A program made the position numbers and the translations under genes. Of a stretch of DNA of 57,156 bases, positions 6,032 to 52,422 are shown piece by piece. Each line of letters opens with the position of its first letter. Positions within the stretch are counted from its first letter, which is position 1. The stretch is taken from NCBI GenBank assembly GCA_048940645.1, contig JBHLOI010000018.1, forward strand, positions 1 through 57,156. The letters run 5' to 3'. This DNA is from Promethearchaeota archaeon. Its GTDB lineage: Archaea > Asgardarchaeota > Lokiarchaeia > Sigyniarchaeales > SOKP01. The notes beneath the pieces were generated by a model. It saw only the letters and a list, made by a program, of their open reading frames with translations. It did not search any database and was not told where the DNA came from.

Positions 6032-6144
6032 TTAAGGAATGGAATAGTGAAGATTTTTATACTCTTTTTAATTGACAAATCTAGTTAGTAAGTATTAATA
6101 AGTCATAATTATCTTATAATACCATAAAAATGAATATTATGTGA

Positions 6145-7845: not shown

Positions 7846-8010
7846 ATTATCTTAAACCTCAAATAATATTTTGGTAATATTTTTTTAAATTCATATTTTT
7901 TCTATTCTTTTATCCATAATTTATAAATTTGGTTAATTTTATTTTAGATTGGTCAAACTATTAATTATCACATAAAAGTAATTAGATTAATTAATTTAAG
8001 GAGTTATAAA

Positions 8011-9078: not shown

Positions 9079-9120
9079 CTTTAAAAAAAAATTTAAAAAA
9101 AATATAGGAATATTAGCTAA

Positions 9121-9681
9121 TTAATCACCAATTGGAAGAATTTTTCTTCCATATGATTCATTTATAATTTCTGCTATTGCTAAATAAATTGCACTTGAAC
9201 CACACAAAATTCCTTCATATCCTGCTATGATTTTAATTAACGATATACCAGTAAAATCACCAATAGCTAGTAGAAAAAATAATATAGCTAAACTTAAAAA
9301 GACGACCTGTAGAGCCCTATTCCTTTTCAATGTTCCAAAAAACATAAATAAAGTAAATAAGCCCCACATCAGAAGGTAAGATCCTACAGCAAATGTCTCT
9401 GGAGGTACACTCCATAATCCTGTATTTGGTAAAATATTTAGAAAAACTAATGTCAACCAAAACAATCCATAGGATGTAAAAGCTGTTGTCCCGAACGTAT
9501 TTCCTTTCTTATATTCCATAATACCCGCAATTATTTGGGCAATTCCTCCATAAAATATTCCCATACTTAAAATCATAGTCCCTAAGGGAAATAAACCAGC
9601 ATTATGAAGATTAAGTAGGACAGTAGTCATACCAAATCCCATCAGACCAAGCGGTGCTGGATTTGCCAATTCATCATTCAT
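9121..9681 (-). CDS. satP: acetate/succinate transporter (GPR1/FUN34/YaaH family)
   Basis: [19 protein letters not shown] and [15 protein letters not shown] signatures. Confidence 0.95.
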
Positions 9682-9922
9682 TTTTCTTTTACTCGTCTAT
9701 TATCAATTTAATTAGATTCATGTACTTATTTTGATTTTAAAATTTTTTGAAAGATAAAAACCTTATATTAATAAAAAATTAGGACATCTTCAATTGATAA
9801 AAAAAACCTTGTTTTAGGTTATAAAGATAAAAGTATCAAATTTATAGATAAAAATCTTATAAATTATAGTAAATATATTAAATAAAATAGAGAGAGATCG
9901 GAAAATAATAAATAAAAAAAAA

Positions 9923-10297
9923 TTGATTATCATGTCCTCAGCTAAAGGTTTTTTATGGAGCCTAGTATTCCTTTTAACCGCAGCTATTTATAGCTCAATT
10001 CCTACTTATTTAATTGTAACCTATTGGCAATGGTTAAATTCATTCACAATGGACGGGAGACCTGTATATACAATTCCTTTATTTACTTTATTCTTATGGA
10101 TTATTTCTTTAGTTGTTACTTTAATTTATCTTGTTGCTATGATAAGAGCGATAGTTCAGAGGAAAAATGAGGATTTAGGGATACCTAAGGGTGTAAAAGG
10201 TTTTGGACTTGTCTCTTCAATTATAGTATTTGTATTTATGGTTTTATGGTACATTCTATTTAATGAGATTGCCTTTTTCTCTATGATTCCTCCTTAA
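9923..10297 (+). CDS. small 3-TM membrane protein
   Basis: Three hydrophobic helices; probable ATG at 9932. Confidence 0.75.
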   Translation: MIIMSSAKGFLWSLVFLLTAAIYSSIPTYLIVTYWQWLNSFTMDGRPVYTIPLFTLFLWIISLVVTLIYLVAMIRAIVQRKNEDLGIPKGVKGFGLVSSIIVFVFMVLWYILFNEIAFFSMIPP

Positions 10298-10353
10298 TAC
10301 AATTGGTTTAGATTATTTTAAGGAAAAAATAAAAATTTAATTATTTACTTTAA

Positions 10354-11778
10354 TTATTCAGAAACTTGTTTTAATTTATCTTCATGGATTTTTACCAGTT
10401 TTTCTTTGATTTCTTCATACTTTTCTTTTGTAATGGGGAATTTTCTTAAGGTTAATATCCCTAAAGCAAGAGCAACAGCAGGAAAAACACAAATTAAAAT
10501 TCTAATTCCTAAAAGTGTTAGATTAGTGACTGTTGCTGGATCATAAGTTGCCCATCCCACAGTAGGAAAAACAATAGCTAGTGATAAAGCTACTGCAACT
10601 GTAGAAAAACGAATTATTAAAGCATTTACTCCATAATATGCACCTTCGCGTCTTATTCCTGTCTCAATTTCATCATAGTCGATAATAGCACTCATTACAA
10701 CATCTCGTCCAAACATGATACCAGCAAAACCAAATCCAATTAAAATATATGTTATTATGGCTCCTATAATTTCCCAAATGAATAATGTAGGGATTAAAGT
10801 AATTATTAAAGTTGCTAACGCTGTCATATGGGCCTTTTTTGCACCTTTTTTAGCAAAGAAATTTCGCCATATAATCATAAATATTATTGCGGAGATAAAA
10901 ATTATAGCTAATAATAATTGTTGCATTAAAGCATCCTCTTCACCTATAACATATCCTAGGAAATATGGATTGATTATGGGGAACAATCCAAAAACAAACC
11001 ACTGTGCAAAATTTGTCAAAACATACCATTTAAAAGCTTTATTTTTAAATGTAAGTTTTACAGATTTAAAGAATGATGGTGCTTTTTCAGGATCCTTAGA
11101 GTATTCTTTTCTTTCCTTTAATCCAAATATAATAAAAATAGAGGCAAAAATAGCTGCTATAGCTGCCATAATAAGTGAAGTTCCAATAAATTGTTTCTGA
11201 ATATTTGATCTTATTAGGGGATTGGTTGTATAAGGTATTAATTCTTCAATAAAAAAGCCAGGTAATAAAGCAGCGAATAATAATCCTATGATGTTAAAAA
11301 TTTGAACAAAATTATTAGCTTTTGTTCTCTCACCTAAATCCTGATACATTTCTGGAAATAAGCTTGTTTGATTTAAAGAATATGCTGTATAGAAAGTATC
11401 AAAAAGATTTATTATAATTATAAAATAAAGGAATTGAATCACTGTTGAACCTGTAATAGGTGCTGTCCATAAAAGAATTATAATTATACAGGTTGGAATA
11501 ATTCCTCCAATTACGTAGGGTCTTCTTCTTCCCCATTTTGATGTTGATCGATCTGATAAAGCACCTAAAAGCGGATCATTTAACGCATTCCAAACAGACC
11601 ACAATACGTAGCCTAATGAAACTAAAAGTATATCACCTATTATTACCGTATAATAGAAGTTAAATATATAAAATGTAAACATTTGATATGACATTGTGTC
11701 TGCTATTCCAGCAAAACTATAAAAGATGGTTGTTTTTGTAGATATTTTTTCCCTTGAGCTAAATTTTTCTTCACTCAT
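10354..11778 (-). CDS. MFS transporter, glycoside-pentoside-hexuronide (GPH) family
   Basis: WNALNDPLLGALSDRSTSKWGRRRPY and IIDYDEIETGIRREGAYYG; 12 TM. Confidence 0.93.
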   Translation of the reverse strand: MSEEKFSSREKISTKTTIFYSFAGIADTMSYQMFTFYIFNFYYTVIIGDILLVSLGYVLWSVWNALNDPLLGALSDRSTSKWGRRRPYVIGGIIPTCIIIILLWTAPITGSTVIQFLYFIIIINLFDTFYTAYSLNQTSLFPEMYQDLGERTKANNFVQIFNIIGLLFAALLPGFFIEELIPYTTNPLIRSNIQKQFIGTSLIMAAIAAIFASIFIIFGLKERKEYSKDPEKAPSFFKSVKLTFKNKAFKWYVLTNFAQWFVFGLFPIINPYFLGYVIGEEDALMQQLLLAIIFISAIIFMIIWRNFFAKKGAKKAHMTALATLIITLIPTLFIWEIIGAIITYILIGFGFAGIMFGRDVVMSAIIDYDEIETGIRREGAYYGVNALIIRFSTVAVALSLAIVFPTVGWATYDPATVTNLTLLGIRILICVFPAVALALGILTLRKFPITKEKYEEIKEKLVKIHEDKLKQVSE

Positions 11779-38384: not shown

Positions 38385-39956
38385 TTGAAAATTAAGACAG
38401 ATATTTTATTAGTCGGAGGAGGTATCTCCGGATTATCATTGGCAATTAAACTAGCGAAATTAATACCAGATCAAGATATACTTTTAATTACTAAGGAGAA
38501 CCTCAGAGAATCTAATACATTTTATGCTCAAGGAGGTATTGCTTGTGTGTGGAATGGAAATGATAGTTTTGAAAACCATATTAAAGATACCTTAATTGCA
38601 GGAGATGGATTATGCAATGAACTGGTTGTTAAAAAAATTATAACGCAAGCCCCAGAAAGGATAAAAGAGTTAATTGATTTAGGAGTTGAGTTTAACCGGG
38701 GTGAGAATGGTGAATACGATCTGGGAAAAGAAGGGGGTCATTCTGAAAGAAGAATCTTACACGTCAATGATTTAACAGGCCAAAATGTAGAAAAGAAACT
38801 GATTGAAGAAGTGAAAAAACACCCTAATATTCAAATAAAGGAATATTGGTGTGCAATTAATTTATTTTCAGCTAATTTTAGGTGTGATGGAGCTTATGTT
38901 TTAGATCAAGAAAATGATGAGATCCATAATATAGCAGCTAAAATAACTGTGTTGGCGACTGGCGGAGCGGGGAAAATTTATCTTTATACTACAAATCCAG
39001 ACGTGGCGTCAGGAGATGGGATTGCTATGGCTTACCGAGCAGGAGCTATAATTGCAAATATGGAATTTTATCAATTTCATCCAACATGCTTATACCATCC
39101 ATATGCAAAATCAATTTTAATCACCGAAGCCATGAGAGGAGAGGGAGCTATTCTTAAAGACATAAACGGACATCAGTTCATGCAAGAATATCATCCCGCT
39201 AAAGAATTAGCTCCACGGGATATTGTGTCTAGAGCAATTGATGCTGAACTTAAAAAATCAGGAGATGATTATGTATATCTAGATATAGCCTCATATAGGA
39301 GTTCAGCTTTTATTAGAAGTCACTTTCCAGGAGTTTATGAAGCCTGTCAAAATTTTAACATAGATATAACTAATGAACCGATTCCTGTTGTTCCAGCAGC
39401 GCATTATTGTTGTGGAGGTGTATTAACAAAAATTGATGGATCTACCAAAGTGAAAAACTTATATGTAATTGGAGAATCTACTTGTACAGGATTACATGGT
39501 GCAAATCGATTAGCTAGTAATTCTCTATTAGAAGGTTTAGTTTGTGCCCATGAATGTGCAAATACCCTTGCAAATAAATTGGGAGATTTAAAGATAAGAG
39601 AATTTAAAGAATGGGAGCCAGGTAGTGCAGTACCCTCAACCGAAGCAGTTATTATATCCCAAAATTGGGATGAAATCAGAAGATTTATGTGGAATTATGT
39701 TGGAATTGTTAGAACCGATTTAAGGCTTCAAAGAGCAAAGAAGAGAATTAACCTTTTGCTTGATGAAATAAACCAATATTATTGGGATTTTAAAATTGAA
39801 AAAAATCTTGTTGAATTAAGAAATTTAGCTACAGTAGCAAAATTGATAATAGTAAGTGCTATTTCAAGAAAAGAGAGTCGAGGAATTCATTATAACCTGG
39901 ATTATCCTGAGAAATCTACCATGAGTAGGCCAACTACTCTTAGAAGACCTTGGTAA
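38385..39956 (+). CDS. nadB: L-aspartate oxidase
   Basis: SNTFYAQGGIA, EGGHSERRILH, QFHPT, LHGANRLASNSLLEG, ESRGIHY. Confidence 0.96.
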   Translation: MKIKTDILLVGGGISGLSLAIKLAKLIPDQDILLITKENLRESNTFYAQGGIACVWNGNDSFENHIKDTLIAGDGLCNELVVKKIITQAPERIKELIDLGVEFNRGENGEYDLGKEGGHSERRILHVNDLTGQNVEKKLIEEVKKHPNIQIKEYWCAINLFSANFRCDGAYVLDQENDEIHNIAAKITVLATGGAGKIYLYTTNPDVASGDGIAMAYRAGAIIANMEFYQFHPTCLYHPYAKSILITEAMRGEGAILKDINGHQFMQEYHPAKELAPRDIVSRAIDAELKKSGDDYVYLDIASYRSSAFIRSHFPGVYEACQNFNIDITNEPIPVVPAAHYCCGGVLTKIDGSTKVKNLYVIGESTCTGLHGANRLASNSLLEGLVCAHECANTLANKLGDLKIREFKEWEPGSAVPSTEAVIISQNWDEIRRFMWNYVGIVRTDLRLQRAKKRINLLLDEINQYYWDFKIEKNLVELRNLATVAKLIIVSAISRKESRGIHYNLDYPEKSTMSRPTTLRRPW

Positions 39957-40119: not shown

Positions 40120-41631
40120 TTGGTATTTCTCTTGAAAAACTACAATGTAATTCTAATTCATCCACCTAGAAGCGTACAGCCAAATTTTGGTAAAAACGCT
40201 AAATTCAGGCGTGGTCGATATATCTTTATTCCGATGGGTGTTTTTGCTATTGCTGATATTCTTGAAAGAGAGGGTTTTGGGGTTAAAATTATAAATTATC
40301 CTTTAGAACAATATCTAAACCATAATTGGATTATAACTAATTTTCTCAAAAATACTGATATTGATGTATGTGGAATAGATTTACATTGGATACATAACGC
40401 CTATGGCGCTATAGAAGTTGCCAGAATCATAAAAGAGATAAATCCTAATTCTAAAGTGATCTTTGGAGGTAATACTGCTTCATATTACCATCATCAAATA
40501 TTAAAATATTATAATGAAATTGATGGTGTAATTAGAGGAGAAGGTGAAATCCCCCTACTAAAATATGTTCAGAGTATTGTTAAAAATCATTCTTTAGATT
40601 CCGTTCCAAATTTAACTTATCGTGATTCTTCTAAACATATAAAAATCAATTCTCTATCGTATACTGCAAAAACATTAGATGATTTAAATTTTACAAATGT
40701 ATCACTCCTAGAAAATGCAAAATCTTATTTTGAATGTAGTAGAAAACTTATGGGCATATCTTTTAATCTTTCCATTGGAAGGGGTTGTCCATTTAATTGC
40801 CCATTTTGTGGAGGAGGTCAGAGAGCTCAACAAAAGTTCGCAGGACGTAATGAAGTGATTCTAAGAAGCCCTGAAAAAGTAATAGAAGATATTAACAAAA
40901 TAAAAGACAATTATAGAATTCAAAGTGTTTTTTTTGGACATGGCAGTTATCCTGCTAATTTAAAATATTGGGAAAATTTATTTGGGTTAATTAAAAAAGA
41001 GAAGCTTGATATAGGTGCAGACTTGGAAATATGGCGTTTACCATTTCCTAAAAAGATGTGGAAAATGTTTCATGACACTTTTCCTAGAAGATTTTCTTCA
41101 ATAAGCGTCTCTCCTCGAACTATGTCTGAAAAAGTTCATTCCAAAATAACTGAAAAATGTGATCCAACCTTTAAATTTTCAAGAGCTCAAATTAACGATT
41201 TAATAAGGAATGCGAATCTCTTTAGGAGGACATTGAGAATATGGTTAACGCTCGGTTTTCCGTTTCAAACCCGCCTTGATGTTTTGAAAGATTTTCTTTT
41301 TATGATGAAGTGTGCATTAAAATATGGAACGACTAAATCCAAACCGATTACAATCATGAATGAATTATATCACATTTTTCCTGGGTCACCTGCGCATGAA
41401 TCGCCAGAAGATTATGCAGTAAAATTAAAATACAAATCTTTTCCCGAGATTGCTGAAGTTTTTAAAAGATCTAAAATATCATACTTTTACAGTGTGATAA
41501 ATTATGACTCAAAAGCCTTTTCTGCTTCTTCAATACGGATAATAAATACACTTTCATTTTTAAGTACTGTAAACATGCTGTTAACTACTGGCTCAAAACA
41601 ACCTGAAGTGGAAGGCAGAAGAAATAAATAA
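40120..41631 (+). CDS. B12-binding domain radical SAM protein (Ta0216/TIGR04190-like)
   Basis: IPMGVFAIAD, GIDLHW, RGEGE, GRGCPFNCPFC. Confidence 0.88.
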   Translation: MVFLLKNYNVILIHPPRSVQPNFGKNAKFRRGRYIFIPMGVFAIADILEREGFGVKIINYPLEQYLNHNWIITNFLKNTDIDVCGIDLHWIHNAYGAIEVARIIKEINPNSKVIFGGNTASYYHHQILKYYNEIDGVIRGEGEIPLLKYVQSIVKNHSLDSVPNLTYRDSSKHIKINSLSYTAKTLDDLNFTNVSLLENAKSYFECSRKLMGISFNLSIGRGCPFNCPFCGGGQRAQQKFAGRNEVILRSPEKVIEDINKIKDNYRIQSVFFGHGSYPANLKYWENLFGLIKKEKLDIGADLEIWRLPFPKKMWKMFHDTFPRRFSSISVSPRTMSEKVHSKITEKCDPTFKFSRAQINDLIRNANLFRRTLRIWLTLGFPFQTRLDVLKDFLFMMKCALKYGTTKSKPITIMNELYHIFPGSPAHESPEDYAVKLKYKSFPEIAEVFKRSKISYFYSVINYDSKAFSASSIRIINTLSFLSTVNMLLTTGSKQPEVEGRRNK

Positions 41632-41750
41632 CACTTAATGCTTTTACTTATTTGTAAAACCTCATTGCATTTAATTAAATTTTTAATTGATGGTTGTGTT
41701 TAGTTTTACTATTAAAGAAAATTTATTCGATATTGACTAATTGAAATTAT

Positions 41751-42542
41751 ATGAATATGCATTATTGTAAAAAAAAACCTAAAAATATAAGATCATTTAG
41801 CATATTATTCTTCATTTTTTCATGTTTACCAATTGCTTTCATTTTTATTCTTTTAAGATTTATCCCAAAAGCACTACCTTTAATGGAGGCTTATATTAAT
41901 TCTGGTTCTTCTTTTTTCGTTCCTATTATACCTAATATCAATTTATTACCTGAAAAAGGTCAATTAATTGGATTAACTCTCGGTCAATTGATTGATATTA
42001 TCATAATGGTTAATTTACTTGGTTTTATTGAAAGTAGTATATACCATTTTTTCAAAAAGAAATTCTCTATTGAACAATTTTCAGAAATTAGTTTAACCTT
42101 AAATTGGCTCACAACAGAGGAAGAACTTTTTTTATCATCTCAAGAACAAGATGATTTGTTTGGATTAGAGGTTAATTTACTTTTTTTAAATAATTGTTTT
42201 AATAAAGATTTTGTAAAAACTTTCAATATTTATCAGAAAGACCTACTATTCTATTACTTGCATGCTCTTGAACAAGATAGAAAATTTAAGAATGATAAGA
42301 GATTCTATACGAAATCCAAATTTATATCTTATTATTATAACAAAAACCGTGTTTCTTCTTTATTTACTCTTTTTAAATTAAAAAATCCTTATCTTAAGAA
42401 TATAAATCCCCTCCTTATTTGTAATTTTCCAACTATTTTTAATGAAAGTATAAGAGGAGAGGAATTATTAATTATGCATTTAAAATTCAAAATTAAATCT
42501 ATGTTAAATCCTAAGTTAATTATTTCAAGAAAAAGTGAATAA
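41751..42542 (+). CDS. hypothetical membrane protein, very AT-rich
   Basis: 263-codon ORF with 2 hydrophobic segments; no family recognised. Confidence 0.45.
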   Translation: MNMHYCKKKPKNIRSFSILFFIFSCLPIAFIFILLRFIPKALPLMEAYINSGSSFFVPIIPNINLLPEKGQLIGLTLGQLIDIIIMVNLLGFIESSIYHFFKKKFSIEQFSEISLTLNWLTTEEELFLSSQEQDDLFGLEVNLLFLNNCFNKDFVKTFNIYQKDLLFYYLHALEQDRKFKNDKRFYTKSKFISYYYNKNRVSSLFTLFKLKNPYLKNINPLLICNFPTIFNESIRGEELLIMHLKFKIKSMLNPKLIISRKSE

Positions 42543-42543
42543 T

Positions 42544-43902
42544 ATGGAATGGAATAAAGATATAAAAGAACTATATGGATTGATTACTGAACAAGTTCCT
42601 GAAGCATTTCGTGCATCAGTCAAACCTATGTTGCTTGAAGCTGCTGAAAGAGCAGCACGCCTTAGGAATTCTGGATTTGTAAGTAGGGATGATTTGTTAT
42701 CCGCACTATTTGAGATAACACCTGAAGCATTTAAACCAACAGTAGTTGCGGATTTGAAAAAAATAGGAATAGAATCAGATAGATATGTAAAATTATCAGA
42801 AATTAGGAAAGAATATGCTCGTACTTGGGATGAAATTGGTGGAGCATTTTTACCTGGTGTTTATCATTTTACTATGTATCTAACTGATCGATGCAACCAA
42901 AAATGTATTCATTGTGCTGCTGAGGTTATGGAAAATCGTCCAGAATTATCAACAGATCAATGGATTCGGATTATTGAAAATATTGAACAAACTTTAAGAA
43001 ATCAGGGTCGCAGAGGTTGTTATATTTGGTTTGGTGGAGAACCTACCCTTCGTAAAGATCTTAAAGATTTGATTAAATATTGTGGTGAAAAAGGCTATTA
43101 CCAAGCAATTTCTACAAATGGTATGCTATTCGATGAAGAACTTGCGAGAATATGCGCTGATGCCAAGATGAGTCACGTCTTTATTAGCTATGATAGTGTT
43201 TATCCACAAAGAGCTGCAAAGATAAGGGGTGTATCAAATGCATATGAGGCGGCTGAAAATGCTATTAAATTAGCTTTAAAGTATGGTCATTTTGTTATAT
43301 GTACGGAAACGGTTCAAAAAGAGAATCTTGATGAAATTGAAAAAATAAAAGAGAGATTAGAATCTATGGGAGTTATACCATATTTTAGGGCAATTATAAA
43401 ACAGAGAACTGCTGAAATAAACTGGGATGAAATTGGGTTAGATCATGATGAATATATAAAGTTTTATGAATTCAAATACAAGCAAGTCGTTCATGCTATT
43501 AGAAAAGGAGAAGCTTCATCTCTCAATAAATTCTATACTTATGACATGGTACCTTTCATGGAATGTCCTCTTAATGATGAGGAGCGAACTGCATTAGAGT
43601 GGGGAGTGGGTTGTCAAGCATGTCGCTCAGTTTCGGGTATTGATGTTAATGGAGATTTCTTCCCCTGTGATTATCCATCTACATTGATTCTGGGTAATGT
43701 ATTAGAGCAACCCTTTGAGGAGATTATGGAATCGGAAATGTTTAAATCAATCAGGGACAGAAAAATAAAAGGTAAGTGTGCTACTTGTCATCATCTAGAA
43801 TTATGCGGGGGAGGTTGTAGGGTTCATGCTGAAAATGAAACAGGTGACTTTTTGGCTCCATTCCCTTTCTGCTGGCATGATAATAATCATGAACATGAAT
43901 GA
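42544..43902 (+). CDS. radical SAM/SPASM protein with N-terminal DUF2621/PCP_red-like helical module
   Basis: CNQKCIHC, FGGEP, GCQAC...FFPCD and KCATCHHLELCGGGCR SPASM cysteines. Confidence 0.9.
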   Translation: MEWNKDIKELYGLITEQVPEAFRASVKPMLLEAAERAARLRNSGFVSRDDLLSALFEITPEAFKPTVVADLKKIGIESDRYVKLSEIRKEYARTWDEIGGAFLPGVYHFTMYLTDRCNQKCIHCAAEVMENRPELSTDQWIRIIENIEQTLRNQGRRGCYIWFGGEPTLRKDLKDLIKYCGEKGYYQAISTNGMLFDEELARICADAKMSHVFISYDSVYPQRAAKIRGVSNAYEAAENAIKLALKYGHFVICTETVQKENLDEIEKIKERLESMGVIPYFRAIIKQRTAEINWDEIGLDHDEYIKFYEFKYKQVVHAIRKGEASSLNKFYTYDMVPFMECPLNDEERTALEWGVGCQACRSVSGIDVNGDFFPCDYPSTLILGNVLEQPFEEIMESEMFKSIRDRKIKGKCATCHHLELCGGGCRVHAENETGDFLAPFPFCWHDNNHEHE

Positions 43903-43923
43903 TGTATTTAAAAGTGAAGCTTT

Positions 43924-45327
43924 ATGGAGTGGGAAAAAGAGACTCAAATTCTATTCGATAGAATAGTAGAACAAATGCCTCAGGGATTTAGGCCTTCTGT
44001 TGAACCGTTAATAGTAGAAGCGGCAGAAAAAAGGTGCCTTGAACGAAATGGCGCTTACATTAATGATGCGGATGTAATCATGGGGATTTTTGATATTATC
44101 CCTGAAGCATTTAAATCTGTAATGGTTGAAGATCTGACAACGTTAGGAATTGATGTTGAGCGATATATTGAACTTAAAGATATAAAAGATCGACTTAAAG
44201 TCTCTTGGGAAAAATTAGAAAGAGGATTTCATCCCGGAAATATTCATTTTGCTATGTATCTTACGGATAAATGCAACCAAAAATGTATACACTGTGCTGC
44301 TGACGATCTCGTGCCACGTACAGAACTAACTACAGAACAATGGTGCCAGATAATCGAAAATGTTGAAACTGGATTGAGAAAACAAGGAAGACATGCATGT
44401 TTCGTGTGGTTTGGGGGAGAACCTACTTTGCGTAAAGATATAGGTGAAATCATGAAATTTTGCAAAGAAAAAGATTACATTCATGCTCTTATTACCAACG
44501 GTGTGAGATTTGACGAACCGTTCGTTAAAATGTGTAAGGAAAACAATATTAGTCATATATTCGTAAGTTTTGACAGTGCAGACCCAAAGAAAAACGATCA
44601 AATTCGTGGGTTCCCGAATTCCTTAGATTATGCTAAAAAAGCTATAGATCTCTGTTTAAAAAGTGGAATTTTTGTGTGTTCATCAATCACTGTCATGAAA
44701 CAAAATATTGATGAGTTGGAAGAACTTAAAGAATTATCAGAAAAATGGGGTTCACAACCATATTTTAGATGTGTGGTCAAACAAAATCGAGCTGCTGAGT
44801 TTTGGGATGAAATAGGCCTTAATACGGAAGAATACAAAAAAATGTATGAATTTAAATACAAACATGCCGTTGAAACGATAAAAAAAGGTGAGGCAGGGAT
44901 ATTACCTGCTTATGAAATTTATGATATGGTACCCTTTATGGAACAACCTAAAGACGATAAGGAAATAGCGGCAATCGAATGGGGTGTAGGGTGTTTAGCT
45001 TGTAGGACGATGATGGGTATTGGCATAGATGGTACAATATACCCTGCAGGGTATCCCACTACATTGACGCTTGGAAACGCATTAAAGAATAATTTTGAAA
45101 ATGTGCTTAATTCTCAACTATACAAAGATATTCGCGATAGAAAAAAAATTAAAGGGAAATGCGCGACATGCCATCATCTTAAGTATTGTGGTGGTGGATG
45201 TCGTGTGACTGCAGAATATATCACAGGGGATTTTTTTGGTTCATTTCCTTTTTGCTGGCATGAAAATGATCATGAACATCAAGTTGATTTTGTTCAAAAG
45301 AAAGAGATAGAATTTTTCGAACAATAA
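43924..45327 (+). CDS. radical SAM/SPASM protein (paralogue) with the same N-terminal module
   Basis: CNQKCIHC, FGGEP, KCATCHHLKYCGGGCR; collinear with the preceding gene. Confidence 0.9.
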   Translation: MEWEKETQILFDRIVEQMPQGFRPSVEPLIVEAAEKRCLERNGAYINDADVIMGIFDIIPEAFKSVMVEDLTTLGIDVERYIELKDIKDRLKVSWEKLERGFHPGNIHFAMYLTDKCNQKCIHCAADDLVPRTELTTEQWCQIIENVETGLRKQGRHACFVWFGGEPTLRKDIGEIMKFCKEKDYIHALITNGVRFDEPFVKMCKENNISHIFVSFDSADPKKNDQIRGFPNSLDYAKKAIDLCLKSGIFVCSSITVMKQNIDELEELKELSEKWGSQPYFRCVVKQNRAAEFWDEIGLNTEEYKKMYEFKYKHAVETIKKGEAGILPAYEIYDMVPFMEQPKDDKEIAAIEWGVGCLACRTMMGIGIDGTIYPAGYPTTLTLGNALKNNFENVLNSQLYKDIRDRKKIKGKCATCHHLKYCGGGCRVTAEYITGDFFGSFPFCWHENDHEHQVDFVQKKEIEFFEQ

Positions 45328-45349
45328 TAGGTTTCTCTTAAGAATAAAC

Positions 45350-46774
45350 GTGAGAATAATGCGAGTGTTAATAATTTCTGGGAGTAGGGAGATAGTACAT
45401 GTTATGGTTCCGCCATTAGGAGAAGCATATTTGGGTTCCTATTTAATTAATCAAGGACATGATGTAAAGTTGCTTGATTTAACCTTAAGTAATGATTATA
45501 AACAAGATGTTTCAAAAGCAATATATGATTTCAATCCACAAGTAATTGGCATTTCAATTCGTAATATTGATTCAACTACATACCCTGGTAATCTTTTCTT
45601 TTATCTACCAGTTAAAAATATTATTCAATATATTAAACGACTTGTAGAACCAGATATTCCAATAATTTTAGGTGGGGCTGGTTTTTCTATTTTTTCTGAA
45701 GAAATTTTGAGGGATTTAAATCACGATTTGGGTGTTGTTGGCGATGGAGAATACGTATTTGCTGAGATACTAAAAAGAATTAGAAATAATGAAGACCCCA
45801 GAAATATTGAAAGGGGTATTTGTTTTTTGGACAATAAAGGCGAATACCATCAAAATCCACCATGGCGAGTTGAAAATTTAGATGAACTTCCTTTTCCAAT
45901 ACGGGATATTATGGATAATGATTCGTATCTTATAGATCCATTGAATAAATCTGGTCCAATTTGGGGAAATATTCAAACTAAAAGGGGCTGCCCTATGAAT
46001 TGCATTTATTGTAGCTATAGATTTATTGAAGGAACCAATGTACGTTATAGATCTCCAGAAAATGTTACGGAAGAGCTCGATTTAATAGTAAATAATTATG
46101 GAATTAAAAATGTGTTTATTGTAGATAGTATTGTCAATTTAAATTATGATCATTTAAAAGAAACATGCCAAGAGATTATTAATCATAAAATACATGTCAA
46201 TTGGGGAGCAAATTACGTTCCAAGTGAGAAATTTCTTGATTTAATGCCACTGATGAAAGAAAGTGGTGCTATACATTTCGCAACTGGTATTGAGTCATTA
46301 TCAGAGGAAATGCTAAAAAATATGAATAAAAATCGATCCCCAGATGAGGCGATCCTTACTTCTAAAAAGTGTATTGATCTTGAAATTGAACAATTAATCC
46401 ATATTATTGTTGGAGGTCCAGGGGAAACACTTGAAACAGTTCGAGCTTCATTAGACCAGTTAGAAACTATAGAGAGTTATAGAGGAAATTTATGGCAAGG
46501 AGATGGAGATGTAATCGTTTTTATAGGTATGAGAATTTATCCTCACACTCCTCTTCAGCGAATTGCAGAAGAAGAAGGAACTATTTTGAAGGGAGAAAAG
46601 TTACTTAAACCCAAATTTTATATCTCTCCAAAAATCAAAGAAGTAGATCTTTATCAAATAGTAAGAGAGTATGGTGAAGCAAATCCAAGATGGATGATGC
46701 CTGGACTTGGGTTCAACAATCCAGACGGGTTTGCTGAATTAAGTAATATTCAATTTGCAAAATATCAAAATTAA
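45350..46774 (+). CDS. B12-binding radical SAM protein, similar to the lipid-biosynthesis TIGR04072 type
   Basis: PPLG, GISIRNID, GGAGFS, TKRGCPMNCIYC, GGPGET, GMRIYPHT. Confidence 0.88.
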   Translation: MRIMRVLIISGSREIVHVMVPPLGEAYLGSYLINQGHDVKLLDLTLSNDYKQDVSKAIYDFNPQVIGISIRNIDSTTYPGNLFFYLPVKNIIQYIKRLVEPDIPIILGGAGFSIFSEEILRDLNHDLGVVGDGEYVFAEILKRIRNNEDPRNIERGICFLDNKGEYHQNPPWRVENLDELPFPIRDIMDNDSYLIDPLNKSGPIWGNIQTKRGCPMNCIYCSYRFIEGTNVRYRSPENVTEELDLIVNNYGIKNVFIVDSIVNLNYDHLKETCQEIINHKIHVNWGANYVPSEKFLDLMPLMKESGAIHFATGIESLSEEMLKNMNKNRSPDEAILTSKKCIDLEIEQLIHIIVGGPGETLETVRASLDQLETIESYRGNLWQGDGDVIVFIGMRIYPHTPLQRIAEEEGTILKGEKLLKPKFYISPKIKEVDLYQIVREYGEANPRWMMPGLGFNNPDGFAELSNIQFAKYQN

Positions 46775-46793
46775 AAAAAAAGGTATTAATAAG

Positions 46794-47966
46794 ATGGATT
46801 GGCAACAAGAAGTTAAAAAGCTTTATGAAGATATGGTCTTAAGAATTCCAGAAATGGTGAGACCTGTAATTAAGCCAGAACTTTTTAAAGCAGCTGAGCA
46901 AAAATGTGAGGAGCGAAATGGAAAACGGGTGGCTGAGATAGATCTTGTTGTGGCAATGTTTGAAGTCACACCACCAGCTTTTCAACCAACGATGATTGAG
47001 GATTTAAAAGCTTTGGGGGTTAATTATGACTTATATATGCCTAAAGTAAATTCTGATTTTAAACTTGAAAACGATCTTAATCAATTAGTTAATGATATTT
47101 TTAAGCTTGGTGAGATTACAGGTGTAAAATGTAATAGAGAAGCTATTTGGAAGACATTAAATTCTTACAAGGATTTTTTTTCCGGATCTTCTATTTCGAT
47201 TAGAACAACTACCAAACCCATTGAAGAGAGGGATATTTCTGCAAGATATGTTGAAATGATGATCCCCCATAATCCAGATCCTTATAAAACTGCAATAAGA
47301 AAAGGATTAATTAAAAAGAACGGGCATCCAATTCATAAAATGATATTAGAAGCATTTGATACTTTTAATATTATGGGTTATGGTATTGATTTGGATTCTA
47401 GATTTGGATTATCTAAGATATGGCCTTTTATAGTGCCAGGGCCTATAGATCCGCTTTTTTCAATGAATTATGTCCCTAAAAGTATGAAAAAATACGAGGA
47501 CTACTTTAAAAAACATGGATTGACAATATTTAGTCTTTTTGCTTTTGATTTCTTTAAGAATTCGACAAATATTTATTTCATGCTTAAAGATCCCTCTAAA
47601 AACAAAATTGCAGATTGTAAAGCACTTGTAAAAGATTTAGGTTTTACTTTAGCATCTGAAGAGATTATGGAAAAATGTTGCGATGCAGTACATCTCAATT
47701 ATACTTTTAGCTGGGATTCAGAAAAGATCGAGCGTATCTGCTTTGGTATGACTTGTCATGATAAAAAGGAAGTTCCAGTGCACTTCCATCCGTTAATAGA
47801 AGAATTCGTTGAAAATTCACTGTTCCAAAGTGAAATTCATAAGTTTATTTACGGAGTAACTTTCACACCAAAAGGGTTTTACTATAAGATTGAAAATGAT
47901 TATAATGGAACTATGGTAGATTTTCTATTAATGGGTTCTAGAGCAGGAATTGATTCCTATAAGTGA
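46794..47966 (+). CDS. ABBA-family aromatic prenyltransferase (NphB/Orf2/CloQ-like) with N-terminal helical module
   Basis: DPYKTAIRKGLIKKNGHPI, YGID...GLSKIW, FKKHGL, NIYF, WDSEKIERICF and IYGVTFTPKGFYYKI align by eye with NphB segments. Confidence 0.85.
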   Translation: MDWQQEVKKLYEDMVLRIPEMVRPVIKPELFKAAEQKCEERNGKRVAEIDLVVAMFEVTPPAFQPTMIEDLKALGVNYDLYMPKVNSDFKLENDLNQLVNDIFKLGEITGVKCNREAIWKTLNSYKDFFSGSSISIRTTTKPIEERDISARYVEMMIPHNPDPYKTAIRKGLIKKNGHPIHKMILEAFDTFNIMGYGIDLDSRFGLSKIWPFIVPGPIDPLFSMNYVPKSMKKYEDYFKKHGLTIFSLFAFDFFKNSTNIYFMLKDPSKNKIADCKALVKDLGFTLASEEIMEKCCDAVHLNYTFSWDSEKIERICFGMTCHDKKEVPVHFHPLIEEFVENSLFQSEIHKFIYGVTFTPKGFYYKIENDYNGTMVDFLLMGSRAGIDSYK

Positions 47967-48045
47967 TAAAGAAATCTTATCTTATGGTAAAACTATGTAA
48001 TCAAGTAATTATTAAAAATGAGAAAATAGAATGGAGGTAAAAAAA

Positions 48046-48432
48046 ATGAATACAAAAGAAGAATGGGCAGCGTATCTTACGCGTTTTATGAAAGCCTATA
48101 ATGAGTTACCAGATTTGAAACCGATGTTAGAGCCAATAGCACCATTGGTTTTTCAATATATAATAACTGATGACCTTGAGATGAGTTATTGGCAATTAAT
48201 CGAAAAGGATCGAATGGATTGGGGAATGGGTGAATACTCAGGACCTGATGCTCCGAAAATCATCCATAAAACGGATTTTGAAACTATCAAAAAAGTAAAT
48301 TCAGGGGAGTCCGATCCTATTAAAGCTACTATGGAGGGTACTTATGTTGTAGAAGGTGACGTTTCTAAACTTATGGCTTGTGCACCTTTATTACCACTGA
48401 ACGCAAAAGCTCACGCTGAAGCAGTAAAATGA
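48046..48432 (+). CDS. SCP2 sterol/lipid-carrier domain protein
   Basis: TDFETIKKVNSGESDPIKATMEGTYVVEGDVSKLM is the SCP2 C-terminal pattern; GGAGG Shine-Dalgarno before ATG 48046. Confidence 0.85.
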   Translation: MNTKEEWAAYLTRFMKAYNELPDLKPMLEPIAPLVFQYIITDDLEMSYWQLIEKDRMDWGMGEYSGPDAPKIIHKTDFETIKKVNSGESDPIKATMEGTYVVEGDVSKLMACAPLLPLNAKAHAEAVK

Positions 48433-48500
48433 TGAGTAGATGATAAAAATTAAATTAATTTGTTTTTTTTATTTTAAAGTTATTAATAAATAATAAAAAG

Positions 48501-49916
48501 GTGAAAAAAGTTCAGTTTTGTGTAGCTACAAATTGGGATTTCGAGCTTATAGATAAATTAACAGAATACCCTGTAACTGATGTATATGGTGTTGCAGATC
48601 ATACTATCGTAGGAGGAGGCCGCCCATCTTTTTTACTAACAAAAATTTCTGAAGAAAAAATAGCAGAATATATTAAGAGAATTCATGAGAAAAAAATGGA
48701 ATTCTCTTATTTATTAAATGCTCCATGTATGAACAATATGGAATATGATACACATTACCATAAAGAACTGCTTAAATATCTTCAATGGATTAGTGATATA
48801 GGAACTGATAACGTGATAGTAACCAATCCATTTTTAATACAGCTAATCAATAAACAATTTCCAAAACTAAAAATTCGAGTTTCGACCATTGCACACGTCA
48901 ATAGCGTGAACCGCGCAAAATTTTATGAAATGATGGGAGCAAATGAAATAACTCCAGATGTAATGATTAACCGAGATTTTAAAACTTTAGAAAAAATAAA
49001 GAAAGCAGTAAAATGTAAAATCGTTTTACTTTTAACTGATGGTTGTTTATATCAATGCCCCTTTAGATATTATCATTATAATATCTTAGGACATGCATCC
49101 CAATCTCATCAACAATTTGAGCGTAATTATATTGATACATGTATCTTAAATTGTAGTGTTATAAAATTTTCAAATCCAACCGAAGTACTTAAAGCAAGGT
49201 GGATTCGTCCAGAAGATTTATCTCATTATGAAGCTATAGGGATCAATAATTTTAAAATCGCTGGTCGGCGGATGTCAACAGAATGGATTATTAGAGCAGT
49301 AAAAGCATTCTCTTCACAAAAATATGATGGAAATCTAATTGATATTATTCAAGGGTTCTCAATGTCATTTGGAGGTCTAGAACAAAAAGATCCTAATCTA
49401 AAATTAACTAAAACTCTTGGGAAAGAGTTTAAGTCAAAATTGTATATAGACAATACCAAATTAGATGGCTTTATAGATTTTTTTAAAAAACAAGATTGCA
49501 TAGCAATGTGTAATGAATGTAACTATTGTGAAAAATGGGCAAAAAAGGCTGTGATACTAGAAAAAGAGGAATCTACTAGATATGTAGAATCTTTAAAGAA
49601 CTATATTGATGATATTGTATCCAGTCGTGAATTTGGAGTCACATCAACTAAACCTAAAGAAAAGGAAAAAATAGGTTTAATATGGGATTCTGAAACTGAG
49701 ATCCTTTTTAATAAATTAATAGAGTTAACACCTCCTCAATTTCAACCAATAGCACGGGTTGCAATTTCATCTCTCGCAGAGGAAAAAGCCAAAAAAAGAT
49801 CTTCACAACAAGTAGAACACGTGGATATGATCGAAGCTTTCTTAGAAGGAACTCCAGGACCTTTTCAAGCTGATATGAGGGAAGGACTTAAAAAGTATGG
49901 TCTAATAGATGAATAA
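48501..49916 (+). CDS. peptidase U32-family (Fe-S hydroxylase-like) protein with C-terminal helical module
   Basis: YLLNAPC, RVSTIAHVNS, INRDF, GCLYQCP...C...C, WIRPEDL, FKIAGR; C-terminal WDSETE...TPGPFQ module. Confidence 0.87.
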   Translation: MKKVQFCVATNWDFELIDKLTEYPVTDVYGVADHTIVGGGRPSFLLTKISEEKIAEYIKRIHEKKMEFSYLLNAPCMNNMEYDTHYHKELLKYLQWISDIGTDNVIVTNPFLIQLINKQFPKLKIRVSTIAHVNSVNRAKFYEMMGANEITPDVMINRDFKTLEKIKKAVKCKIVLLLTDGCLYQCPFRYYHYNILGHASQSHQQFERNYIDTCILNCSVIKFSNPTEVLKARWIRPEDLSHYEAIGINNFKIAGRRMSTEWIIRAVKAFSSQKYDGNLIDIIQGFSMSFGGLEQKDPNLKLTKTLGKEFKSKLYIDNTKLDGFIDFFKKQDCIAMCNECNYCEKWAKKAVILEKEESTRYVESLKNYIDDIVSSREFGVTSTKPKEKEKIGLIWDSETEILFNKLIELTPPQFQPIARVAISSLAEEKAKKRSSQQVEHVDMIEAFLEGTPGPFQADMREGLKKYGLIDE

Positions 49917-50058
49917 TTAGTGATAACAAATGTTTTTCTTAAAATCAAGGTTAATCACCAAGGTTAGATTGTTTCCATAAAAAAGAAGTATAATTTTAAA
50001 TTTTAACTCTCATTTATTACGAATAAATCTGAGAATAAAAGAGGATTTTAAAAGTAAA

Positions 50059-50856
50059 GTGAATGTTGGAAAAAATATTAGAATTGAACGAATTATAAGT
50101 AGAAAAACGAATAGAACGATTATAATTCCAATGGATCATGGATTAACTTTGGGCACAATTAGAGGTTTAGAAAATTTAGCAGATATGGTAAATAAAGTTG
50201 CTTTAGGAGGCGCAAATGCAGTTTTAATGCATTCTGGTATGATTGGAGCAGGTCATAGACGTTATGGTAAAGATATTGGTTTAATTGTTCACTTATCTGG
50301 AGCTACTAATCTGGCTCCAGATCCAAATCGAAAAGTATTAGTTTGTTCTGTAGAGAGAGCAATAAAAATGGGTGCTGATGCTGTCTCAATTCATATAAAT
50401 ATCGGTGCTAATGAAGAACCAGAAATGCTTCAAGATGCTCAAAAAGTTGTGGAATCTTCAGGAGAGTGGGGAATACCTCTAATCGCTATGATGTATCCAA
50501 GAGGTAAAAAAATAAGCGATGAGAATAACCCAGAGGTAGTGAATATTGCGGTGAGGGCAGGAGCAGAATTAGGAGCAGATATAGTTAAAACAAATTACAC
50601 TGGAGATATTGATTCCTTTAAATACATTGTAAAAAGCGTTCATATTCCAGTAATTATTGCTGGCGGTCCAAAAATGGATACAATCGTTGATTTATTACAA
50701 GTTGTTTATGATTCGATTCAAGCTGGGGGAACTGGAGTAGCTTTCGGAAGAAATGTCTTTCAAGCAGATGATCCTACAAAATTAGTTAGTGCAATTGCAA
50801 AAATTGTACATCATAATTACACTGTGGAAGAAGTTTTAAAAGAATACAAGTTTTAG
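50059..50856 (+). CDS. 2-amino-3,7-dideoxy-D-threo-hept-6-ulosonate synthase / class I DhnA-type aldolase (AroA'/MJ0400-like)
   Basis: [47 protein letters not shown]. Confidence 0.9.
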
Positions 50857-51038: not shown

Positions 51039-51566
51039 ATATTTCCAATATTTCACGTAGCAATACCATTATTGATTTTTGAATTACCCCAAATTAAAAA
51101 AAAGTTTCAATTTAATCGCTTTGCTTTAATAATCGGGTCTCTAATACCTGATTTAATTGATAAGGCTCTAATGTTTTTAAGTATTAGTTCTGGAAGAAGC
51201 TATTCTCATACAATCCTATTTTCTGTGGTGAGTTCTTTATTTGTTTTTTTAATTACAAAGAGGAGTAAGATAATCTCGATTTCTTATTTCGTTGGAACTC
51301 TTTTCCATTTATTATTAGATTTACCTGATATACCTATATTATTTCCATTTATTCCTTATGATTTTATATATATAGAAGATCCATTCGGATTTTGGTTATA
51401 TAAACTGATATATGACCCCTTTACTTATATTACAGAGATTGCAGGATTAAGTATTTTGATTTTCATAATTATCAATAATAAACTATTTAGTTTTAATAAA
51501 ATCAAAGTATTTTTATTGAAAAATTCTAAAAAAGAACTAAAGATTGAAAACAAATATCAGGACTAA
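51039..51566 (+). CDS. membrane-bound metal-dependent hydrolase (YdjM-like)
   Basis: GSLIPDLIDK, GRSYSHTI, HLLLD; the N-terminal His (FPIFHVA) lies upstream of TTG 51072, implying an ATA start near 51039. Confidence 0.8.
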   Translation: MFPIFHVAIPLLIFELPQIKKKFQFNRFALIIGSLIPDLIDKALMFLSISSGRSYSHTILFSVVSSLFVFLITKRSKIISISYFVGTLFHLLLDLPDIPILFPFIPYDFIYIEDPFGFWLYKLIYDPFTYITEIAGLSILIFIIINNKLFSFNKIKVFLLKNSKKELKIENKYQD

Positions 51567-51675: not shown

Positions 51676-52422
51676 ATGGAGCAAAAGAAAATACCGCACA
51701 TTATTGTAGATACTAGAGAACAAAAACTAAGTAAAATCTTGGATAGTAAGAAAGATCGAATCACTTATGAAAATAAGCAGTTAGACATTGCTGATATTGT
51801 CGTTTCTGAGGAAGTGGCAATAGAAAGAAAGGAAGGTTTTGATTTTGTGTCTTCAATCATGGATAATCGTCTATTTGAGCAAATAATGAGGTTGCAGGAA
51901 ACTTATAATACACCAATTTTAATTCTAGAAGGTTTAAATGACAATGTATTTGAAAATGTTGGAATGAAGATATCCTCAATTTATGGTGCTCTTGCGTTTA
52001 CATCATATAAACTAGGAATTGCTGTAATTCCTACGAGGAATATAGAAGACACTGCTATTGTGGTCGAACGTGTAGCTTATAGAGAACAAATTAAGGACGG
52101 GGCTATAATATTAGCAAGAAAAGCACCTAAAGGAATGAGCATTGAAGAAAGAAGAACTTTTATTATCGAGGGTCTTGTAGATATCGGTCCTAAAAAAGCA
52201 AAATCGTTAATTGAACAATATAAGACGCCTCATAAGGTATTTAAAGCAATTAAGCATACTGAGATAACTTATACAAGAACAGGTAACCCTAAAGGAATTC
52301 AAGGTCCTTTAAGTAAAATAAAGGGATTTAGTTGGAAGTTTATTGAAAAAAATAAGAAATTGGTATTTGGTAAAAAGCATCGTTATATCCAAAAAAAACT
52401 TGATGACATACTAAATGAATAA
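51676..52422 (+). CDS. ERCC4/XPF-family structure-specific nuclease (short form)
   Basis: IVDTRE, ADIVVS...IERK, SIMDNRLFEQ, LILEG, HhH motif GLVDIGPKKA. Confidence 0.92.
   Translation: MEQKKIPHIIVDTREQKLSKILDSKKDRITYENKQLDIADIVVSEEVAIERKEGFDFVSSIMDNRLFEQIMRLQETYNTPILILEGLNDNVFENVGMKISSIYGALAFTSYKLGIAVIPTRNIEDTAIVVERVAYREQIKDGAIILARKAPKGMSIEERRTFIIEGLVDIGPKKAKSLIEQYKTPHKVFKAIKHTEITYTRTGNPKGIQGPLSKIKGFSWKFIEKNKKLVFGKKHRYIQKKLDDILNE

Follow-up and report, generated by a model that had tools for sequence, protein, structure and literature searches.

A stretch of DNA from a Promethearchaeota archaeon (assembly GCA_048940645.1, contig JBHLOI010000018.1, positions 1-57,156 of the forward strand) raises the question of which chemistry is carried out by a run of genes that combines an aromatic prenyltransferase, four radical S-adenosylmethionine (SAM) enzymes, an SCP2 protein and a U32-family protein. 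The window denotes here this whole stretch of 57,156 nucleotides, which belongs to a metagenome-assembled genome (MAG) of 3.83 Mb and 89.6% completeness. Domain-library scans of the window proteins identified eight intact and co-oriented genes at 40120-49916 (+ strand), arranged in the order B12-binding radical SAM enzyme 1 (B12a), membrane gene, radical SAM/SPASM enzymes 1 and 2 (SPASM1 and SPASM2), B12-binding radical SAM enzyme 2 (B12b), ABBA prenyltransferase, SCP2 and U32, whereby the core genes that a first-pass annotation had named were confirmed to be present, co-oriented and intact. From the membrane gene through the U32 gene the intergenic gaps measure 1-68 nt; B12a is separated from the membrane gene by 119 nt, and the U32 gene from the AroA' gene that follows it by 142 nt. 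Considering domain content, intact motifs, operon-like spacing, synteny, nested distribution, gene fusions and the SCP2 fold, it is rather probable that the cluster constitutes an accessory, SCP2-centred operon for the O2-independent tailoring of a hydrophobic, probably prenylated small molecule. Directly observed are the set of genes, their fusions and their co-inheritance, while we infer every chemical step.

The same gene order was identified in about 50 Promethearchaeota (Lokiarchaeia) MAG loci, comprising contigs with prenyltransferase homologues and loci fetched via SCP2, the organism labels of all MAGs being used as deposited. Co-occurrence of the genes elsewhere, for which a synteny check had been set beforehand, was thereby borne out. 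Four of the encoded enzymes have a segment of ~85 aa in common, which is N-terminal in both SPASM enzymes and the prenyltransferase and C-terminal in the U32 protein (hereafter the module), and the distribution of this module was followed in 301 genomes drawn evenly from the phylum. It is present in 26 of them, namely in 11 of the 27 sampled genomes of the genus and in 22 of the 68 of the family (G000 not being counted in the genus and family figures), and almost nowhere else, several of the module-negative genomes of the genus being 98-100% complete. The prenyltransferase family PF11468 was found in 19 of the 301 genomes, all 19 of which are nested within the 26 module genomes; as the sampled genomes are related and not independent, no p-value is attached to this nesting. 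The cluster is hence real, co-inherited and accessory, and its arrangement is far beyond chance, since the order is kept in ~50 related loci and the prenyltransferase is confined to module-carrying genomes. Most homologues of the prenyltransferase are 53-75% identical to it, with distant ones down to about 37%, and all of those with a named source are from Asgard MAGs. The most conserved gene of the cluster is SPASM2, whose orthologues are 86-90% identical in the nearest sister loci and still about 61-63% identical in clusters of type B. Nearly every locus is headed by the membrane gene; B12a adjoins it in many loci and lies a few kb away in others.

Comparison of these loci revealed several modular forms. 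Next to the form seen in the window, i.e., [B12a]-membrane gene-SPASM1-SPASM2-[B12b]-prenyltransferase-SCP2-U32, there is a "U32 trio" form, in which U32-like genes of ~383 and ~683 aa are located between the prenyltransferase gene and the 471-aa U32 gene. Further forms possess one or two SPASM-SCP2 fusion genes, and a form devoid of B12-binding enzymes reads SPASM1-prenyltransferase-U32(383)-U32(669)-SPASM2. Short forms without prenyltransferase were identified as well, which are B12a-membrane gene-SPASM1-SCP2-U32 in genomes G207 (100% complete) and G258 and membrane gene-SCP2-U32-B12b in genome G144. Three loci with other organism labels were observed beside these. Two of them (L064 and L065, DATKTP01, labelled Candidatus Deferrimicrobium sp.) hold prenyltransferase-SCP2-SPASM1 genes with 64-72% identity to those of Asgard loci and have a guanine-plus-cytosine (GC) content of 0.38; L065 agrees with locus L022 (contig C17 of G294) in its length of 2865 bases and in its gene layout. 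Both may be mis-binned Asgard contigs. The third (L067, positions 6879-11298; uncultured bacterium MAG CBFDCR010000010.1, GC 0.50, of Gram-negative type) holds two SPASM-SCP2 fusions and a module-SPASM gene, the SCP2 parts being >50% identical to Asgard SCP2, and is without prenyltransferase or U32 gene; this locus is likely the result of an inter-domain transfer of part of the system.

The first-pass annotation had given the gene list correctly and had missed both the module common to the four enzymes and the link of SCP2 to U32-SCP2 fusions. Compared with the first copy of the module, the other copies are 28-42% identical, and a profile of the four copies identified exactly four places in the 3.83-Mb genome, all of which lie inside the cluster (139.9 bits for SPASM1, 147 bits for SPASM2 and 114.8 bits for U32). 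The AlphaFold (AF2) model of the module consists of four helices, with a predicted local distance difference test score (pLDDT) of 93.8. Each of the four copies matches Pfam DUF2621 (PF11084), but weakly: the best E value is 8.6e-5, and the scores given, of 16.7-18.8 bits, are below the Pfam cut-off of 27.7. At the level of predicted structure the likeness is closer: the module matches the Atlas clusters of DUF2621, including stand-alone DUF2621 proteins, with template modelling (TM) scores of 0.82-0.88 and those of PCP_red with about 0.62, it superposes with TM 0.82-0.92 on the N-terminal parts of SPASM enzymes and prenyltransferases from Promethearchaeota in the Atlas, and it likewise superposes on a 321-member Atlas family of ~479-aa U32 proteins. 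Sequence matches to PCP_red (PF08369) were confined to related fusion proteins. A structure search of the PDB returned middling helical matches, among them the PCP_red domain of BchB (2kru, Z 5.1); a sequence search of the PDB with the module gave chance-level matches only, and Foldseek against the PDB gave no match at E<=1e-3, its histone and RuvBL rows being weak helical look-alikes. The AAA+ lid domain was considered as a relative and rejected, as its VIA-align Z of about 7 lies within the chance range for helical models. The module thus has the same predicted four-helix fold as DUF2621/PCP_red domains such as the BchB C-terminus of protochlorophyllide reductase, but with sequence scores below cut-off.

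Searching 1.84 billion representatives with the module profile yielded 236 clusters at E<=0.001, from which long multi-copy matches were discarded as false positives, these being TPR proteins. Among 52 scanned matches the fusion partners were U32 (12), PTase_Orf2 (11, at either end), radical SAM/SPASM (6) and 2Fe-2S ferredoxin (3), further partners in the same scan being HpaB, PNPOx, SAM methyltransferase and SCP2; the module was also found fused to VOC, FMN reductase, LuxC-radical SAM/SPASM and multi-SCP2 proteins. Because it is fused to so many different enzymes, the module is termed a promiscuous, adaptor-like member of the DUF2621/PCP_red superfamily, a designation that names its fold and not its role. 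Stand-alone module genes exist as well, those examined being located on very short contigs. A separate observation concerns locus L027 (7420-12850), where LuxE, LuxC and a 949-aa LuxC-module-radical SAM/SPASM fusion are consecutive, the module there joining a SPASM enzyme to a fatty-acyl reductase. A literature search returned no description of DUF2621.

The proposed hub of the cluster is the SCP2 protein, encoded in the window as a stand-alone gene of 133 aa (48031-48432, +; PF02036, 23.8 bits vs a cut-off of 21.3). Its AF2 model (pLDDT 92) has UbiJ-SCP2 (6h6p) as best Foldseek match (E 1.6e-5, TM 0.66/0.74), the lead of UbiJ-SCP2 over other SCP2 proteins being small. The window SCP2 shares 72-83% identity with the SCP2 part at the C-terminus of U32-module-SCP2 fusions of 680-689 aa in sister clusters, and owing to this identity the window form looks like a reduced version that keeps SCP2 as a separate gene. 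Across the loci SCP2 occurs in three states, i.e., free as in the window, fused to U32 and fused to SPASM enzymes, whereby the SPASM-SCP2 fusions are found in Asgard loci and in one bacterial MAG with a GC content of 50%. The source genome itself holds 15 SCP2-domain matches in 3.8 Mb, which is unusually many. The U32 gene, located 68 nt downstream of SCP2, encodes a divergent, putative Fe-S protein of the U32 family of 471 aa (48501-49916, +), which carries the module at residues ~392-471. It scores 53.7 bits with PF01136 (cut-off 22.4), covering positions 2-64 of the 233 profile positions only, and in the genome search 49.4 bits (positions 2-191) as compared to about 260 bits for each of three canonical U32 genes; its nearest PDB structure is 5d88 (E 1.2e-7). 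Ten cysteines are invariant (76, 172, 182, 186, 214, 218, 333, 337, 340 and 343), with the spacings C182-x3-C186-x27-C214-x3-C218 and C333-x3-C337-x2-C340-x2-C343.

SCP2 and U32 proteins have a published precedent for cooperation, as UbiT (SCP2) and UbiU-UbiV carry out the O2-independent hydroxylation in ubiquinone synthesis of Proteobacteria, and a ubiT-ubiU gene fusion in Zymomonas is a precedent for the SCP2-U32 fusion (PMC6747719). Hydroxylation by the U32 proteins UbiU/UbiV is O2-independent and uses prephenate as oxygen donor (PMC10990095). The system described here resembles UbiT/UbiU/UbiV in that SCP2 is encoded together with a putative Fe-S protein of the U32 family, in that SCP2-U32 fusions occur in both and in its anaerobic setting, so the resemblance to their SCP2-plus-U32 logic claimed in the first-pass annotation is supported by domain content, fold and fusions. 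It differs in that the window encodes one U32 protein and no heterodimer pair (sister clusters have two additional ones, of about 383 and 683 aa), in that the window cluster also encodes an ABBA prenyltransferase, a membrane protein and four radical SAM enzymes and has an adaptor-like module common to several enzymes, and in that none of five families of quinone-using enzymes was found in the 89.6%-complete source genome. Within the Ubi complex, UbiJ-SCP2 is a lipid-binding hub which holds intermediates for several tailoring enzymes (PMC6747719). What the Ubi metabolon and the present model have in common is a soluble SCP2 hub from which a prenylated intermediate would be offered to one enzyme after another, and the fold of the window SCP2 matches UbiJ-SCP2; here the assembly would be a putative one, with the module fused to the enzymes as candidate docking element. 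We know of no Ubi enzyme that carries a DUF2621/PCP_red-like module. More distant relatives of the core were found in bacterial MAGs, where U32-module-SCP2 proteins and a 1104-aa U32-like multi-SCP2 protein reside beside several B12-binding radical SAM genes, the same clusters containing B12b homologues of 31-34% and U32 homologues of 34-37% identity, and adjoining genes for aldehyde:ferredoxin oxidoreductases, alpha/beta hydrolase, amidohydrolase_2, cupin and cyclases. Two such loci (L026 in GCA_040752695 and L028 in GCA_024644125) contain four B12-binding radical SAM genes and up to three U32 genes, one of which is fused to the module and SCP2, and also hold alpha/beta hydrolase and tungsten-type aldehyde:ferredoxin oxidoreductase genes; judged by their gene content they represent an anaerobic pathway which has not been described and to which the core of the Asgard loci is related.

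The prenyltransferase (46794-47966, +) is a soluble ABBA enzyme of the Orf2/NphB type with the module at its N-terminus. It matches PF11468 with 165 bits (cut-off 22) over positions 3-283 of 287 and is the sole PF11468 gene in the genome. Its nearest solved structures are AmbP3, EpzP (4ee6), AmbP1 and NphB, the PDB relatives being found at E 1e-37 to 1e-25 with alignment of the whole barrel. Four residues that are invariant in 26 homologues (K208, N259, R314 and K365) align with K119, N173, R228 and K284 of NphB, which we take from the NphB structure to be the residues that bind the prenyl diphosphate. The position of the NphB Mg ligand D62 is occupied by Ser, with the invariant residues Arg146 and Arg151 nearby. 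With NphB, CloQ, EpzP/PpzP and AmbP1/AmbP3 the enzyme hence shares the PF11468 barrel and the conserved diphosphate-binding Lys/Asn/Arg/Lys set; unlike these, it is archaeal, has an N-terminal DUF2621/PCP_red-like module and a Ser in place of D62, and it is encoded in an anaerobic radical SAM/U32 operon, whereas NphB-type bacterial enzymes are found in polyketide or phenazine clusters.

All four radical SAM enzymes possess an invariant CX3CX2C motif, which in B12a is located at residue 223 and is invariant in 8 orthologues. B12a (40120-41631, +; PF02310 58 bits, PF04055 40 bits) and B12b (45350-46774, +) both exceed the cut-offs of PF02310 and PF04055. The nearest family of B12a is TIGR04190 (238 bits vs a cut-off of 500), and those of B12b are TIGR04072, annotated as 'lipid biosynthesis' B12-binding/radical SAM (272.6 bits vs 360), and BzaD (214 vs 450), whereby neither enzyme fits a characterised subfamily at cut-off among HpnR, BchE, BzaD, TsrM, TIGR04072 and TIGR04190. 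The best PDB relative of B12b is the Trp C2-methyltransferase 6wte (E 1.9e-20). SPASM1 (42544-43902, +; PF04055 77 bits, PF13186 42 bits; module at residues 1-89) and SPASM2 (43924-45327, +; PF04055 83 bits, PF13186 30 bits; module likewise N-terminal) exceed both cut-offs as well and have 8 and 7 invariant C-terminal cysteines respectively, SPASM2 being devoid of a counterpart of SPASM1 C378. Their nearest named families are AhbD/AhbC/NirJ at about 140 bits (cut-offs 500-650), and by NCBIfam cut-offs they are not orthologous to AhbD, NirJ, PqqE or MftC. An assignment as Tes was rejected (about 58 bits vs 450), the true Tes (473 bits) being located on contig C102. A tetrapyrrole-modifying role, as the likeness to AhbD, NirJ, BchE and PCP_red might suggest, was rejected too, as these scores lie far below cut-off and SCP2 and the prenyltransferase point elsewhere.

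Based on these properties a reaction scheme can be suggested for the favoured SCP2-centred tailoring operon. The ABBA enzyme would attach a prenyl group to a probably aromatic acceptor, or to the substrate of the core, and SCP2 would hold the greasy intermediate out of the membrane. By analogy with the prephenate-derived oxygen of UbiU/UbiV, the U32 protein may insert a hydroxyl group without O2. The B12-binding radical SAM enzymes may methylate or otherwise modify unactivated carbons, and the SPASM enzymes could carry out a further radical step, be it an oxidative decarboxylation, a cross-link or a cyclisation. The shared module is suggested to recruit the tagged enzymes to a common partner, which may be SCP2, an electron donor or the enzymes themselves, and the small membrane protein might anchor the assembly or pass substrate into or out of the membrane. 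A number of points weigh against this scheme. The Cys spacing of the cluster U32 differs from the published 4Fe-4S motif of UbiU/UbiV-type proteins (CX6CX15CX3/4C or the UbiV variant; PMC6747719) and includes an extra CX3CX2CX2C, and the NCBIfam scan of the U32 protein gave no UbiU/UbiV model at E<=0.001, only TrhP with 31 bits as compared to a cut-off of 534. The radical SAM chemistry is established to the level of the enzyme class only, because all scores lie below every equivalog cut-off, and the cluster is without polyprenyl synthase, UbiD/X, UbiE/G or chorismate-using genes. Finally, going by gene content, the core must have a substrate that is independent of the prenyltransferase, because the short forms in G207, G258 and G144 are intact without it; aromatic prenylation is therefore not an obligatory first step of the conserved core.

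Which molecule is tailored was weighed against several other explanations. The proximity to O2-independent ubiquinone synthesis invites the proposal of an anaerobic quinone- or phenazine-like membrane electron carrier, for which the pairing of SCP2 and U32 as in UbiT/UbiU/UbiV, a prenyltransferase whose nearest relatives transfer prenyl groups to indole, phenazine and naphthalene rings, and the predicted capacity of the cluster for C-methylation and hydroxylation can be put forward. Against it, a search of the 89.6%-complete source genome for five families of quinone-dependent membrane enzymes (NrfD, NarI/HdrE, NuoH, cytochrome bd and cytochrome b) remained negative, the control genomes being positive. 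Moreover, only 11 of 27 genomes of the genus have the module (G000 again not counted), with negatives of 98-100% completeness, the cluster holds no ring-forming, decarboxylase or O-methyltransferase genes, and short forms lack the prenyltransferase, all of which renders such a carrier very unlikely. As product, an accessory lipid or metabolite is to be preferred over a respiratory quinone. As to the first-pass proposal of an anaerobic pathway to a prenylated, methylated and hydroxylated aromatic compound or lipid, the gene cluster and the likeness to UbiT/UbiU/UbiV have stood, while the quinone-like carrier is weakened and the membership of AroA' is given up (see below). A catabolic or detoxifying attack on an environmental hydrophobic aromatic compound under anaerobic conditions is hardly credible: the aldehyde:ferredoxin oxidoreductase, alpha/beta hydrolase, amidohydrolase_2, cupin and cyclase genes beside the bacterial core relatives would suit it, but none of these catabolic-looking genes is present in the Asgard loci, and neither a prenyltransferase nor a set of several B12-binding radical SAM enzymes is known to have a catabolic role. 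Unlikely, too, yet deserving more weight, is the explanation that the core hydroxylates and methylates an endogenous isoprenoid lipid (an archaeol or glycerol dialkyl glycerol tetraether (GDGT) chain, a polyprenol or a head group) with the prenyltransferase block as optional extra. It would account for the intact short forms in G207, G258 and G144, and it is in line with TIGR04072 as nearest family of B12b, with the genes for a CDP-alcohol phosphatidyltransferase and a GT2 glycosyltransferase that flank the cluster in one genus, with the SCP2 fold, as confirmed by the predicted structure, and with the membrane protein heading the operon. Opposed to it are the facts that ABBA enzymes of the Orf2/NphB family are known for aromatic acceptors, that the lipid-enzyme neighbours are restricted to that one genus, that a bona fide Tes is encoded elsewhere in the genome, the cluster SPASM enzymes reaching only about 58 bits with Tes, and that core membrane chemistry is not usually distributed so unevenly among the genomes of one genus.

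The remaining explanation concerns the membrane protein (41751-42542, +; 263 aa), for which no Pfam or NCBIfam match was obtained and the Atlas held nothing usable. Among 14 orthologues only the first ~105 residues align, comprising two predicted transmembrane helices and a conserved loop, followed by a tail of 120-160 unalignable residues whose frame is always open, giving total lengths of 226-264 aa. As the gene has the lowest GC content of the cluster (0.232), at which a random stretch of 150 codons would stay open with a probability of about 1e-6 by our own estimate and thus almost never, the tail is presumably translated and only loosely constrained, i.e., almost free to vary. A conserved head with a hypervariable, always-open tail resembles a precursor peptide, and a system akin to those of ribosomally synthesized and post-translationally modified peptides (RiPPs) could be imagined, in which the membrane protein is the precursor to which the module would direct the radical SAM, prenyltransferase and U32 enzymes; radical SAM/SPASM and B12-binding radical SAM enzymes are typical peptide maturases, and one module is common to several tailoring enzymes. 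Small-ORF space is absent from the gaps of 1-119 nt, which leaves the tail as sole candidate peptide substrate. The comparison with the PqqD-like RiPP recognition elements (RREs) of peptide maturases extends to one small domain being repeated on different tailoring enzymes; it ends where the module is all-helical instead of a winged helix, is associated with SCP2 and has no identified precursor peptide beside it. No PqqD/RRE domain was found in the domain scan of the window proteins, the DUF2621/PCP_red fold occurs on many non-peptide enzymes, the fusion of SCP2 with U32 and SPASM enzymes suggests that the ligand is lipid-like, the prenyltransferase is of the small-molecule Orf2 type, the bacterial core relatives are without such a membrane protein, and the AT-rich drift of the tail suits a loosely constrained linker. 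Hence, a RiPP-like system is regarded as highly improbable, and the SCP2-centred tailoring of a hydrophobic small molecule is retained as the favoured explanation.

Outside the conserved unit, the gene next to U32 encodes AroA' (50059-50856, +), an equivalog-level match to ADH synthase (NF005556, 388 bits), which the first-pass annotation had counted among the cluster genes. It adjoins the cluster in only 4 loci (the window, L008, L048 and L070), and its membership was not borne out; judged by gene order it is a backbone neighbour. Upstream of the cluster the window encodes, at 38385-39956, a flavoprotein of 523 aa with FAD_binding_2 and Succ_DH_flav_C domains (NadB- or fumarate-reductase-like), and in G207 this flavoprotein gene is immediately followed by AroA', a 424-aa gene, a YdjM-like gene and then the cluster. 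Since the flavoprotein gene lies directly beside AroA' in G207, the cluster lies between two backbone genes in the window. The downstream flank of the window is formed by the backbone genes for a YdjM-family membrane protein (51072-51566) and an ERCC4 nuclease (51676-52422), the flavoprotein and YdjM-family genes keeping their neighbourhood with AroA' in G207. The source genome has two full ADH synthase paralogues (C19:50065-50841 and C11:14937-15710); a third, DeoC-like gene (C59:16742-17482) was observed about 260 nt from a B12-binding radical SAM gene (C59:17742-18773). DHQ synthase II was considered as a guide to the housekeeping AroA' copy and proved uninformative, as it resides on another contig (C52). 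Neighbours of another kind were observed in three further loci: a CDP-alcohol phosphatidyltransferase gene is located beside the cluster in L015 (16627-17565) and L016 (300-1238), divergent from B12a, and in L024, divergent from the membrane gene, where the phosphatidyltransferase (6792-7733) is accompanied by a GT2 glycosyltransferase (5370-6545) and three more B12-binding radical SAM genes. These neighbours hint at a membrane-lipid context.

The first-pass annotation had not recognised this combination of genes from any described pathway, and a literature search agrees with it, as a full-text search for Asgard archaea or Lokiarchaeia together with these enzyme families returned no account of the cluster. 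Pathway and product are thus undescribed, whereas the enzyme families are each known and the SCP2-plus-U32 logic has precedent. To our knowledge, the combination of ABBA prenyltransferase, U32 hydroxylase-like protein, B12- and SPASM-type radical SAM enzymes and SCP2 has never been reported, and it predicts a concrete new metabolite. No other known prokaryotes are as closely related to eukaryotes as the Asgard archaea, whose lipid and small-molecule chemistry is, to the best of our knowledge, almost unexplored. With the tailoring proposed here, prephenate-type anaerobic hydroxylation would no longer be confined to ubiquinone and RNA, and archaeal metabolism would come to include soluble aromatic prenyltransferases. 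For the DUF2621/PCP_red module, a fusion partner of many redox enzymes, the operon provides a first way to approach its function, and the long, U32-trio, SCP2-fusion and short forms are natural experiments for dissecting the pathway. As a tentative extension, which we consider possible though doubtful, Lokiarchaeia may make, free of O2, lipid-like molecules of a new class that are prenylated, hydroxylated and methylated, such as a membrane redox or signalling lipid, on an SCP2 hub to which the enzymes are recruited via the fused DUF2621/PCP_red adaptor. If true, this would constitute a small-molecule counterpart of the recognition-element logic of RiPPs and the first function for the DUF2621/PCP_red superfamily.

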